Shown: one piece after another, positions 39,564 through 53,655 of the stretch | Layout: each line of letters opens with the position of its first letter | How positions within the stretch are numbered: the first letter of the stretch is position 1 | DNA from: a virus | Lineage: Duplodnaviria; Caudoviricetes | Virus record (IMG/VR): IMGVR_UViG_3300046779_000519 | Span: 113-64,112 of that record | DNA: 64,000 bases | Reading direction: 5' to 3' (one strand) | Notes under the pieces: generated by a model | Database searches by the model: none | Told to the model about the DNA's origin: nothing | Seen by the model: only the letters and a program-made list of their open reading frames with translations | Made by a program: the position numbers and the translations under genes

Positions 39564-39817
39564 TAGTCCCAGTCAGTGTCAACAAACAAGGGTGAGCCTT
39601 CAAATGTCAAACTACCTCGCACATTATACTCGAAATAATCTATCGCGTCATCAACAGACATCCCATCCTTAACTAGCACCTCAATACACTTAGGTACTGA
39701 GTACACCAACTTCATATGTTGTTGTTCTAGTCCAATGATAGCATCATCAAATCCATCCGCTTTAATCAACTCAGTCTCGTCGTTAAAGTATTCTAGTATT
39801 TTGTCTATCATAATCAC
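39563..39817 (-). CDS. Conserved hypothetical phage protein
   Basis: KADGFDDAIIG...YSVPKCIEVL..DGMS.DDAIDYFEYNV motif familiar from aquatic phages. Confidence 0.6.
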   Translation of the reverse strand: MIMIDKILEYFNDETELIKADGFDDAIIGLEQQHMKLVYSVPKCIEVLVKDGMSVDDAIDYFEYNVRGSLTFEGSPLFVDTDWD

Positions 39818-40083
39818 ATCTTTGAGGATAAGCGTCCAATTACTTCTTCTAGTATCTCCCGAGTTAGGGGTTCGTGGTCTACGTCTTTCTCTTGGGAAAA
39901 GTTTGCTAACTTATTCTTTTCAGCCATACTTACTTTCTTCAGTAGCCATTGCAACTCGTCTAATCGAGTCTTGTACTCGTCGCAACGTTCTTCGCTAACG
40001 TACTTAGTTAACTTCTCGTGCTGAGCTTCCTTAAGTTTAGCCCGCATATTATTCATACGGTCTAGTATTATTTTCTTTATCAT
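39814..40083 (-). CDS. Hypothetical coiled-coil protein
   Basis: 89 aa. Confidence 0.5.
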   Translation of the reverse strand: MIKKIILDRMNNMRAKLKEAQHEKLTKYVSEERCDEYKTRLDELQWLLKKVSMAEKNKLANFSQEKDVDHEPLTREILEEVIGRLSSKM

Positions 40084-40093
40084 ATCTTAAATC

Positions 40094-40189
40094 TAGTAGT
40101 CAGAATGGGAATCGAACCCACACCCCATCTCTTTCGAGTGCTCTAATCCTCAAGGGTCAATTTCCTTATGACCTTTAAGCTACCTGACT
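40094..40189 (-). ncRNA. tRNA-like element A (expanded D-loop, anticodon arm replaced by GAAA tetraloop hairpin)
   Basis: Acceptor AGTCAGG/TCTGACT-A-CTA; T-arm GTGGG-TTCGATT-CCCAT; TAGCTT...GAGC D-stem. Confidence 0.7.
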
Positions 40190-40331
40190 AAATTGCTGTC
40201 TTTCCAGCTGTCATTACTTGTAACCTTGCAGTGGCAAACCGTGTATTGAGGGTTATACGACTGAGAACCTCATTGCCAATATTTATAGTCGTATATTTAA
40301 ACAAGTAAATTGCTGTCTTTCCAGCAGTCAT
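40189..40331 (-). repeat. Two 26-nt direct repeats (hairpin TGAC[A/T]GCTG-GAAAGA-CAGCAATTT) 117 nt apart
   Basis: 40189-40214 and 40306-40331 differ at one position. Confidence 0.85.
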
Positions 40332-40389
40332 AGAGTATGACGTCTGCTAGTTTTCCAGTTGTAAACAGCCGAAAACTAACGGTTCTCTC

Positions 40390-40489
40390 TAGTAGTCAGG
40401 ACAGGATTCGAACCTATTCCGCGGCAAGTGATTGGTACTGACCTTTCGGTTACTCCCGTTTCCGCTTTCTACCATTAAACTACCTGACT
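40390..40489 (-). ncRNA. tRNA-like element B (about 37-nt structured insert in place of the anticodon loop)
   Basis: Acceptor AGTCAGG/CCTGACT-A-CTA; D-arm TAGTTTAATGGTAGAA; stem GCGG/CCGC; T-arm ATAGG-TTCGAAT-CCTGT. Confidence 0.72.
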
Positions 40490-40598
40490 ATATAGTTATC
40501 CTCACACCAACTCAGATAACTACGTTTGCTCTCCTCCTTAATCACGCTGAGACTTTGCGCTTTCGGTAATATGGTGACTGACTTCCTTCAACCTGACT

Positions 40599-40630
40599 CA
40601 AAGATAGGTAAACGTTTTTGTTAAGTCAAG
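40599..40630 (-). promoter_or_regulatory. Promoter driving the non-coding RNA locus
   Basis: On - strand CTTG-N20-TATCTTTG. Confidence 0.65.
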
Positions 40631-45610: not shown

Positions 45611-46374
45611 TATTTCTTGTGTTTAAACATTAACTCTATTGTTGATTGATAATCCTTACATTCAATTACCTGATACGATTCGTTCTCCTCAAACAACCAC
45701 ACCAAGTACAATCGACCAATCTTAATATTGGTATTCTTCTCAATGATATACTTGTAAAGGTTTAGCTGAAGAGAATAAGTCTCGTACTCACATTCCTCTA
45801 TGAAAGAGATAGGTGCTTTGAAACGCTTGCGATACTCTGACTTCATTCGTATCTGCTTGTTGGTCTTGTAGTCCCATATCTGATACTCCTTAAGTTTCTC
45901 ATTATAGAATAGACAATCCACCATACCTCCTACCCCAAGTTCTGCGTCCCCAATAACTAACTCCATTGTGATAGGTGTTAGGGCAGGGGAGGCATCACGA
46001 TAGAAGTCAAGGAACATCTGAACGCATACATCATAACGCTCTTTGATATGGTCTTCGCCGAACTTATCTATAACAATTTGTGAATTGTAAGGGAATATCT
46101 TATTGAACCAGTAGTTCTCCGCAAAGTTGTGGACTAGTGTCCCCTTCATACCCGCGAACTCTCGTTTGTAATCCCATTCGGCAAGGACATCCTCTACAGG
46201 AACACCTAACTTCTTAGCTGACTTCTCAGCCATTACTTTAGCATTGAACTCAGGCTTAAATAGCTTGAGGAATCCCGTACCTGATACTAACTCTTGCTCT
46301 CCTATGAAATACTTATGAGGCTCGTCATAGTATTTGATATGGGAAAACTTCTTAAGTTCTTGGTATATGTGCAT
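45610..46374 (-). CDS. PD-(D/E)xK exonuclease (RecB/Cas4-like)
   Basis: GTLVH...GGMVDCLF...IWDYKT...YSLQLNLY. Confidence 0.8.
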   Translation of the reverse strand: MHIYQELKKFSHIKYYDEPHKYFIGEQELVSGTGFLKLFKPEFNAKVMAEKSAKKLGVPVEDVLAEWDYKREFAGMKGTLVHNFAENYWFNKIFPYNSQIVIDKFGEDHIKERYDVCVQMFLDFYRDASPALTPITMELVIGDAELGVGGMVDCLFYNEKLKEYQIWDYKTNKQIRMKSEYRKRFKAPISFIEECEYETYSLQLNLYKYIIEKNTNIKIGRLYLVWLFEENESYQVIECKDYQSTIELMFKHKK

Positions 46375-46846
46375 ACTTATTTTCTATGTTATGTTCTTTT
46401 AAATAATTTAAGTAAGCATCTCTGGCATCTAATTCATTGTCAAATCTTCCTAAATCAACTTTCTTGTTGTTAACAGATATCTTTGCCATATATTTATTGC
46501 CATCTTTTGTTACACCAACATACTTACTACTTCTATTTGGTTTATTAATCGCAACGTGAGTATGATTCTCTCTTCGCGATGTCCATTCTAGATTATCTAC
46601 TCTATTATTCTTTCTGTCAAAGTCTTTGTGATTAACCTCGTTCTTGCCTTCTACTTTAGGTATAAATGTGTTTGCGATTATACGATGTACCTTAGTTGAC
46701 TTTCTGTTAATCGCACATTTGTCATAGTGCGATGTACTATTCGAGTATGATATAAAGTATCCAGTTTCTTTTATCCTTATCCTACCAAATGTACTTGCCT
46801 CGTACTTGCCATCCGTATTAGGGACATCTTTCCAAATTTCTTCCAT
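46352..46846 (-). mobile_element. NUMOD4-HNH-AP2 homing endonuclease
   Basis: EIWKDVP..GKYEASTFGRIR; VHRIIA..F...EVNHKDFDRKNNRVDNLEW; SSKYVGVT...Y.AKI...LGRF AP2 domain. Confidence 0.85.
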
Positions 46847-49255: not shown

Positions 49256-49287
49256 CAAATGTACAACATAAGTTTTAATTAGTCAAC
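49256..49287 (-). promoter_or_regulatory. Promoter of the replication operon leader
   Basis: On - strand GTTG-N20-TACATTTG. Confidence 0.65.
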
Positions 49288-52737: not shown

Positions 52738-53655
52738 TTATTTTGATAAGATTAACTCTACCGCCTCGTGAGCCTTGGTAGATGCACTCATAATTAACTT
52801 AGGGTCAGACTTCAATTTGCTAATCCATCCGTTGATGTATGCTTGCGAATTCTTGACATCGTCGACTATTGCTTGAATGCCCGTGATAGCCTCTAAATAT
52901 AGCGCGCCTAACTCAGCTACCAACTCCTCCTTAGAATACTCGTCAGAGCCAAAGTTTGCCGTCTTGTCTAAGCGATTAAGTCTAGACTCGTGACCCGTAG
53001 AGTGGATAGCCTCGTGAAAGAATACCTTGTAGTAATCCCCGTTCGATTTCCATTTCTCCGTTGTCTTTGCGGGCATATGGATGTAGTCACCGCTAGGCGA
53101 ATAGTAAGCGCGACCTTGTCCGCTATGCTTAAGCGTTACCTCTTTGCACCAAGCCTCAAGGATAGCTTCAGCGTGTGCATCTGCCTCCAGTTCTGTCACC
53201 TCAATAGGTTGCGATGGCGTGTCGATTGGTAGGTTGGTCTGAGAGATAGAGAATACTTTAAATACCTGCAAGAAGAACGCCTTCTTAGCTTGCTTCTGTA
53301 GGTGTGCGGGTACATCTTCTAAGCGTGCAAAATACTGGGTCTTGCCCGCGATTTCTACCGCAAAGTTGACCTTCCAAAGGTAGACATCCGTAGACTTTTC
53401 GCCCTTGTTAACGCGTCCGTCTAGCTTGCTTACCTGAGCGAATGTGTACCACTTGTTAACCCATCCGTTCTTGATAGCCTTAGCTGATAGGATGAACTGA
53501 TTAACACCGCGGTAAGCCTTACCTTGGGAGTTGATAGCGTTCCATTGATTGGTTACGCTATCCTTGAAAGGTTTAAACCATTGCAAGCCTTTAGTTTGTA
53601 AGCCTTCGATGATTGTATTATTGATTTGGTCGATTAATTCTGCTTGAGTTGCCAT
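52738..53655 (-). CDS. ardC: ArdC-family antirestriction protein (ssDNA-binding N-terminus + zincin domain)
   Basis: QWFKPF...GKAYRGVNQFIL...WYTFAQV..LDGRVNKGEKS; AYYSPSGDYIHMP; FHEAIHSTGH..RLNR; YSKEELVAELGA. Confidence 0.92.
   Translation of the reverse strand: MATQAELIDQINNTIIEGLQTKGLQWFKPFKDSVTNQWNAINSQGKAYRGVNQFILSAKAIKNGWVNKWYTFAQVSKLDGRVNKGEKSTDVYLWKVNFAVEIAGKTQYFARLEDVPAHLQKQAKKAFFLQVFKVFSISQTNLPIDTPSQPIEVTELEADAHAEAILEAWCKEVTLKHSGQGRAYYSPSGDYIHMPAKTTEKWKSNGDYYKVFFHEAIHSTGHESRLNRLDKTANFGSDEYSKEELVAELGALYLEAITGIQAIVDDVKNSQAYINGWISKLKSDPKLIMSASTKAHEAVELILSK

Follow-up and report, generated by a model that had tools for sequence, protein, structure and literature searches.

The 64,000-nt window analysed here is nearly the entire complete viral record IMGVR_UViG_3300046779_000519 (64,112 bp, with direct terminal repeats), a 64-kb phage whose host is, as our best guess, of Bacteroidota type. 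On the minus strand of this window, a promoter and a leader RNA are followed by two tRNA-shaped elements, B and A, with further folded modules between them, and then by a gene for an 89-aa protein (Table 1). No reading frame is conserved across minus-strand positions 40629-40094, and a 47-aa open reading frame (ORF) at 40188-40331 starts inside a hairpin and lacks this start in the related loci L143 and L141. An earlier description made from the letters of the DNA, called here the sequence-only reading, had listed the promoter and the two elements; these parts stand, and the list is extended by two GAAAGA hairpins, a 91-nt module and a conserved leader.

Table 1. Features of the RNA locus and the gene behind it, in window coordinates and in order of transcription
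Feature	Coordinates	Strand	Description	Basis or remark
Promoter	40599..40629	-	TTGAC-N18-TAtcTTTG	sigma-70-like spacing and Bacteroidota -7 box TAnnTTTG
Leader RNA	40490..40598	-	non-coding, ~110 nt, two hairpins, ends at the 5' end of B	13 aligned variants
Element B	40393..40489	-	class I-type tRNA frame	RF00005, 39.3 bits
Insert (cargo) of B	40425..40461	-	bulged hairpin capped by ACC-GAAA-GGU, flanks conserved	near-invariant across frames
Trailer of B and spacer	40329..40392	-	CUA(G) trailer, spacer with two hairpins	fold z-score -2.1
Leader hairpin 1	40311..40328	-	UGAC-N-stem-GAAAGA-stem, then AAUUU and the 91-nt module	hairpin-family search
91-nt module	40216..40306	-	closing stem ACUUGU/ACAAGU, multi-branch, pseudoknot-capable	predicted fold
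Leader hairpin 2	40194..40211	-	GAAAGA loop	ends 5 nt before element A
Element A	40097..40189	-	tRNA frame with hairpin insertion in, or in place of, the D/anticodon region; CUC-GAAA-GAG hairpin before the T arm	RF00005, 34.0 bits
Trailer of A	40094..40096	-	CUA (C74-U75-A76 instead of CCA)	next gene starts 10 nt beyond
First protein gene 3' of the array	39814..40083	-	89 aa, without family match	anchor for locating sister loci

Two tRNA-shaped elements without an anticodon loop

Elements B and A both scored above the gathering cut-off of the Rfam tRNA model RF00005 (29 bits), and they were its sole matches in the complete genome. Being the only tRNA-like genes of the phage, they are not leftovers inside a tRNA cluster. 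Both elements carry the 7-bp acceptor stem AGUCAGG/(C,U)CUGACU and end in discriminator A with a CUA(G) trailer; their T arms are canonical, with a 5-bp stem and a UUCGAnU loop. The sequence-only reading had already noted the common acceptor, discriminator and tail and the canonical T arms. Neither element has a 5-bp anticodon stem with a 7-nt loop, U33 and a 3-nt anticodon, indicating that codons cannot be read. ARAGORN, from which a pseudogene call or no call had been expected, called A alone, as tRNA-??? with a 2-nt 'anticodon', and did not call B by default; the Infernal search of Rfam returned the tRNA model for both elements and no other family.

The frame of B consists of the acceptor, a 4-bp D stem with a GG loop (D arm GUUU-AAUGGUA-GAAA), a short variable loop, the T arm and discriminator A. 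Its anticodon arm is a 3-bp stem that closes an insert, and the Rfam alignment places a 37-nt insertion exactly there, in agreement with the normal D arm and the insert of about 37 nt first proposed. In A, the same alignment adds 27 nt to the D loop and reduces the anticodon arm to 8 nt, the D arm being GCUU...GAGC with the insertion. Three folds compete for the centre of A and cannot be separated because the copies of A are near-identical; at best, A offers a 6-nt loop or a 3-bp GAAA hairpin where an anticodon arm would be. The alignment agrees with the enlarged D loop first seen in A, and CUC-GAAA-GAG is probably not its anticodon arm. When we scanned for this motif beside the T arm, a scan meant for diverged relatives of A, mostly class II tRNAs were returned: in ordinary class II phage tRNAs, N-CUC-GAAA-GAG-N often forms the variable-arm hairpin directly 5' of the T arm, so a variable arm is the likelier identity in A as well.

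The folds were then compared across related RNAs. For 21 elements of the phage lineage with six different acceptor stems, extracted with acceptor and T pairing as a requirement, all 12 acceptor and T pairs were 100% paired, and 10 pairs showed changes on both sides, a level reached by none of 500 shuffles; slid controls were 40-46% paired. Acceptor stems vary within this lineage, and the discriminators include A, G, U and C. A single metagenome scan with a 20-nt exact word from the insert of B returned 20 contigs with 12 distinct B-type elements, whose 26 frame pairs were 98.7% paired, 10 with changes on both sides. Among these 12 RNAs, covariation is also seen in the D stem and in the 3-bp closing stem, neither of which had been used for selecting the sequences. 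The outer pair of the closing stem is C-G, A-U or U-A and the second pair G-C or C-G. The alternative insert fold given by RNAalifold is broken in two sequences, in which the 3-bp closing stem is kept by double changes. The acceptor, D and T stems and the closing stem of the insert thus have covariation support. Together with Rfam, ARAGORN and conservation, these results bear out the central proposal of the sequence-only reading, namely non-decoding tRNA-shaped RNAs at one promoter-driven non-coding locus.

Constraint on the insert and turnover of the elements

The B-type insert (37-38 nt between the strands of the closing stem) was near-invariant on four acceptor stems, AGUCAGG, GGUCAGG, AGGGGAG and AGUGAGA, with differing D stems. 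This invariance includes flanks that lay outside the 20-nt search word, and the insert is conserved across marine and freshwater contigs. The insert is therefore the constrained part of the RNA, and the frame around it varies with compensation, as would be expected of a carrier frame with a working insert. No second B-type insert was found in the fetched viral loci, where the B-type covariance model R1 matched the entire tRNA and frame family. In L144 and L147, element A was 98-99% identical, which exceeds the DNA identity of its flanking genes (86-92%). A diverged copy of A lies in L060.

Sister phages were located via the leader hairpin and via the downstream 89-aa gene. The results showed that the promoter and the ~110-nt leader are kept, while the content behind the leader differs. 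One sister phage has the hairpin only and no element (L142; model R1, 0 matches), one has A only (L127) and one B only (L193), whereas the window holds B, the spacer, the 91-nt module and A. L124 and L125 carry a fusion of the 5' part of A with the 3' end of B, followed by further modules; L126 has three elements, and L129 has five by reading (four by R1 in its twin L145), and the acceptor sequences of these are unrelated. L129, L139 and L141 have another insert in common, carried by three different acceptor stems. The same gene follows the last element in every sister phage, regardless of element type, with 10-13 nt between the end of the element and the gene start. The differences in element sets indicate that the elements are accessory, form an exchangeable RNA cassette array and are swapped by recombination within the shared frame. 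L125 and L143 hold an extra ORF of ~70 aa between the last element and the 89-aa gene, indicating that the slot takes protein-coding cassettes too.

Promoter, hairpin modules and the wider AGUCAGG family

The promoter proposed at 40599-40630 is present (40599-40629), and its sequence is identical in sister phages L124-L127, L129, L131 and L132, in which the flanks vary. Its type had to be corrected, since the -10-like box matches the Bacteroidota -7 motif TAnnTTTG. The form TTGAC-N18-TAnnTTTG recurs in a second promoter-like site at 49256-49286 (-). In the leader, one pair of a hairpin is G-C in six and A-U in six of the 13 aligned variants, two pairs of the 10-bp hairpin are changed on both sides, and no reading frame is conserved among these variants. 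The leader also contains an invariant purine-rich stretch with GGAGG, although the genes of this phage lack Shine-Dalgarno sites: such a motif precedes 1 of the 96 called ORFs, and the leaders are A-rich. A third AGTCAGG, noticed at the predicted 5' end of the transcript (40592-40598), varies among relatives and is probably not functional. The same leader with a frame element was also seen behind different upstream sequence in L043, L134 and L136.

The modules between B and A are conserved as well. The spacer module is 100% identical in L137, L138 and L145 and recurs behind different elements in sister phages. The 91-nt module, 95-99% conserved in L137, L141, L143 and L145 and without an Rfam match, is bracketed by the two GAAAGA hairpins and fills the slot of a tRNA-like element directly behind a hairpin. 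The GAAAGA hairpin itself belongs to a family of which the fetched phage loci contain 100 copies, where chance would give 28; it has six different compensating stems, an invariant loop and no Rfam match. It ends 4-9 nt 5' of many elements and of some true tRNAs in unrelated phages. In L063, it precedes an ARAGORN-called tRNA-Ile, and further copies were seen in L001, L014, L040, L048, L049, L074, L077, L082, L097, L104, L112 and L116. A role of the hairpin as a DNA promoter was rejected, since the stems show compensating changes and the variable stem covers the -10 position. Judged from its position, the hairpin may protect the 3' end of the upstream RNA after a cut by RNase P, and the invariant loop suggests that something also reads it.

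A pattern of a degenerate T arm and the 3' acceptor strand matched more than 120 viral contigs. The matches listed contain 160 elements, among them sequences of 67-147 nt with the acceptor, the T arm and a tRNA-Leu-type D arm in common; the AGUCAGG frame is near-invariant across very different phages, and the central part is highly variable in length and sequence. Often several such elements occur per phage, near real tRNAs, and ARAGORN mostly misses them. The 3' signature of the frame was found in 38 stretches in 185,579 species genomes, ~22 of them with the standard frame and many in Bacteroidota metagenome bins; set against the more than 120 viral loci, this indicates that the family is phage-borne. 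A and B share with it the acceptor AGUCAGG/YCUGACU, discriminator A, the T arm GGUUCGAWUCC, a variable insert replacing the anticodon arm, the phage-borne location, Bacteroidota-type hosts and a C-N-A trailer, but lack the tRNA-Leu-type D arm (GGCGGAAU.GGUAGACGC). In its place, the D arm of B is of class I type with 4 bp, and the D region of A contains an inserted hairpin. By these sequence features, A and B are variants of the AGUCAGG frame. A literature search found no description of this family, and a 2026 preprint on three bacterial tRNA mimics deals with different Rfam families.

The trailers of the family were compared with those of ordinary tRNAs. At positions 74-76, the elements have C (96%), A or U, and A (72%); the 229 ARAGORN tRNAs of the same loci (L001-L120) have C74 (98%), A or U, and A76 (74%), C75 being rare (CAA or CUA). 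The elements thus carry the trailers of the real tRNAs of CCA-less phages, which points to a shared route of 3' maturation. The CAA or CUA in ordinary tRNA genes in turn suggests a particular route of 3' maturation or repair in the hosts.

Several further observations concern the frame and its inserts. L009 (3319-3389) and L054 (13031-13101) contain seemingly normal tRNA-Lys(UUU) genes with the AGUCAGG acceptor stem, so the frame is common to at least one decoding tRNA. Companilactobacillus genomes (L152, L155, L158, L161, L163, L171, L172 and L180) hold a conserved tRNA-like element of ~60-70 nt with a related acceptor end, D and T arms and no anticodon arm, a type also present in viral L010, L029 and L083. 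A second T-arm-like hairpin with a stem and a UUCGAnU-type loop is frequent in inserts (L021, L027, L032, L042, L075, L116, L160 and L166) and is also found in the insert of phage T5 RNA2 (L317, 2660-2784); an element with such an insert would have two potential elbows.

Small early-type genes surround the array, and its strand also carries an ArdC-like gene for anti-restriction with a zincin domain (52738-53655, -); an HNH/NUMOD4 homing-endonuclease-like gene (46352-46846, -) belongs to the same early-strand block. Among the ~40 phage proteins scanned, there was no tRNA- or RNA-handling enzyme, transferase or synthetase. Near and distant searches for similar DNA in the phage collection gave no match.

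Proposed mechanism, alternatives and known systems

On balance we lean, with modest confidence, towards the reading that A and B are small stable non-decoding RNAs in which a host-processed tRNA frame carries a functional insert. Transcription from one promoter would run through the leader, B, the spacer, the 91-nt module and A into the downstream genes. By virtue of its acceptor stem, T arm and elbow, each element would be excised and protected by host tRNA-maturation enzymes, the 5' end being made by RNase P and the 3' end by the pathway for CCA-less tRNA genes. The part replacing the anticodon arm would be the working part, displayed on the frame like an aptamer on an engineered tRNA scaffold, and would most likely bind a host or phage factor. 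The neighbouring RNAs would be freed by the same cuts, namely the leader, the 91-nt module with a short GAAAGA hairpin at its end and an mRNA with a short leader. Each element would be a cassette, with recombination in the shared frame adding, deleting and fusing elements. Of the three roles first suggested for these RNAs, that of a scaffold is best supported, since the insert of B is near-invariant and the frame varies; that of a processing signal is plausible as a secondary effect, given the real-tRNA-like trailers and the gap of 10-13 nt to the next gene; and a role as decoys for anticodon nucleases is unlikely for RNAs that lack an anticodon loop.

Several points weigh against the carrier-and-insert reading. 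The search word fixed 20 of the 37 nt of the B insert, which places the inner fold beyond a covariation test, and the extraction requirement partly guarantees the complete pairing of the 21 elements. All copies of A are near-identical. No partner for the inserts was found: the phage's own genome, searched for an antisense target, contains no complementarity of at least 14 nt, and four Bacteroidota genomes contain no look-alike of the B insert with up to three mismatches. The B insert may bear some resemblance to the 16S 3' hairpin. No Rfam family was found for the inserts, spacers or leader, only tRNA being returned (E <= 10 at the locus, E = 0.1 at eight sister loci). The absence of elements from L142 shows that they are dispensable, which fits an accessory role and would equally fit junk. 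Finally, the expression, processing and stability of the RNAs and the binding of a partner by the insert are inferred from the sequences.

A first alternative is pure processing punctuation, in which RNase P and 3' enzymes free the leader, the 91-nt module and a short-leadered mRNA, and the excised pieces are by-products like mascRNA at MALAT1. The constant distance of 10-13 nt from the last element to the same gene in every sister phage speaks for it, as does the wider family, in which an ORF starts 10-19 nt downstream of 13.6% of elements compared with 5% of random positions (2.7-fold); the conserved hairpin 4-9 nt before many elements would moreover cap the 3' end cut by RNase P. However, 69% of the elements in the family have no ORF start within 60 nt, and L142 has the same operon layout without any element. 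Punctuation also needs no insert, yet the B insert is the most conserved part of the RNA. We therefore regard punctuation as the whole explanation to be rather unlikely.

A frame-based decoy or sponge also seems improbable. Here the acceptor, T arm and elbow would titrate a host factor that recognises the top of tRNAs, such as an acceptor-end defence enzyme, RNase P, the CCA-adding enzyme, EF-Tu or a synthetase, and the insert would merely abolish decoding. The early-type genes and the same-strand ArdC-like gene around the locus are consistent with such a role, and so are the fast turnover of content between near-identical phages, as in counter-defence loci, and the near-invariance of the AGUCAGG frame across very different phages. 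Within the lineage, however, both acceptors and discriminators (A, G, U, C) vary, so that no single acceptor identity is kept; the conserved insert would remain unexplained, and the targets of anticodon nucleases cannot be mimicked.

Charging of the RNAs, by which they would serve as non-ribosomal aminoacyl donors or sinks, is very unlikely. E. coli LeuRS is not known to require the anticodon, and the common frame has a Leu-type D arm and A73, both also found in T5 RNA1. A and B themselves lack the Leu-type D arm, discriminators vary in the lineage, and no transferase or synthetase gene occurs among the ~40 proteins scanned.

We find it hardly credible that removal of a short intron turns the transcript of B, and perhaps of A, into an ordinary decoding tRNA. 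ARAGORN with introns allowed does read B as tRNA-Ala(GGC) with a 24-nt intron, and GGGA beside the insert is invariant. This reading needs G33 (C under an alternative 37/38 reading; U, C or A at the equivalent position in the family), and the intron must sit inside the anticodon at 35/36, with an A.G mismatch in the stem. No bulge-helix-bulge can be drawn from the alignment, no Rfam intron family matches, and 24-37 nt is far too short for group I; conservation is higher in the supposed intron than in the 'exons', the host is of a bacterial type, and A has no usable anticodon loop under any fold. Decaying tRNA pseudogenes, or recombination scars or sites acting at the DNA level without RNA function, are just as implausible, for although the elements are dispensable in L142 and recombination has made chimeras in L124 and L125, every stem is kept paired by compensating changes, A is more conserved than its neighbours, the B insert is kept across marine and freshwater contigs, and the phage has no real tRNA cluster to decay from.

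Returning to the reading of a frame that carries a working insert, we consider tentatively, and with clearly less confidence, that the locus is an instance of a phage-wide RNA-only accessory system in which shuffled cassettes display sequence-specific modules to manipulate host factors or counter defences. If true, it would be the RNA equivalent of anti-defence islands made of proteins, and the GAAAGA hairpin would be its common boundary signal. Phage tRNA-like stable RNAs have been known since the T4/T5 era, and to our knowledge none has been assigned a function. The present locus shows such RNAs to be a very large family under selection; it also shows that the constrained part can be the insert rather than the frame, and that near-identical phages differ in their cassettes. 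The natural gain and loss variants are ready for experiments, and the 37-nt B insert is usable as bait for a partner. Gene finders miss or mislabel such genes, which leads to misread 'tRNA' counts in phages and to misread non-coding gaps in viromes. The locus is real and well supported as a structured RNA, it presents a previously seen, unexplained kind of phage RNA in a new form, and its function is inferred.

Compared with known systems, A and B share the cloverleaf frame, elbow nucleotides and trailer statistics of canonical tRNAs, including the class II phage tRNA-Leu and tRNA-Ser. Like tmRNA and engineered tRNA scaffolds, in which a tRNA-like acceptor/T module is joined to a functional insert, they combine a frame with an insert; they have neither the tag reading frame nor the pseudoknot ring of tmRNA, the ARAGORN tmRNA search of the window was negative, and the likeness to scaffolds is an analogy only. 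Non-decoding tRNA shapes also serve in processing: at the 3' end of MALAT1, mascRNA lets RNase P and RNase Z set the ends of the neighbouring RNA (PMC8457004), and the tRNA-like parts of murine gammaherpesvirus ncRNAs are handles for the same enzymes (PMC4337559). These are eukaryotic systems without sequence relation to A and B, and in B the shape itself holds a conserved insert. Theta ribozymes, which are minimal HDV-like ribozymes, lie at the 3' ends of Bacteroidota phage tRNAs without CCA and have been proposed to mature them (PMC10879173). They self-cleave behind real tRNAs, whereas element A has a gene directly behind it, and no HDV-like ribozyme matched at the locus in Rfam up to E = 10.

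The species 1 and 2 RNAs of phage T4 (rnaC and rnaD) are stable small RNAs beside tRNA genes, rnaC ending in a T-arm-like hairpin. They are not supported as relatives, having no AGUCAGG frame and a best Rfam score of 17.5 bits to tRNA-Sec, below threshold, and are analogues. RNA1 and RNA2 of phage T5 (AY543070, 30501-30644 and 32959-33083), annotated as 'tRNA-like stable RNA with unknown functions', come nearer. They lie on the gene strand beside other small RNAs, and RNA1 has the Leu-type D arm. They differ from A and B in their acceptors and inserts, in their enterobacterial host and in lying inside a large cluster of real tRNAs, and with the B-type model R1 they reached 23.5 and 19.6 bits, values inside the span covered by ordinary T5 and T4 tRNAs. 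Like B and A, however, both have a paired acceptor end, a D arm, a long insert in place of the anticodon arm and a near-identical T stem-loop, and by this architecture T5 RNA1 and RNA2 appear to be the closest known relatives of A and B.

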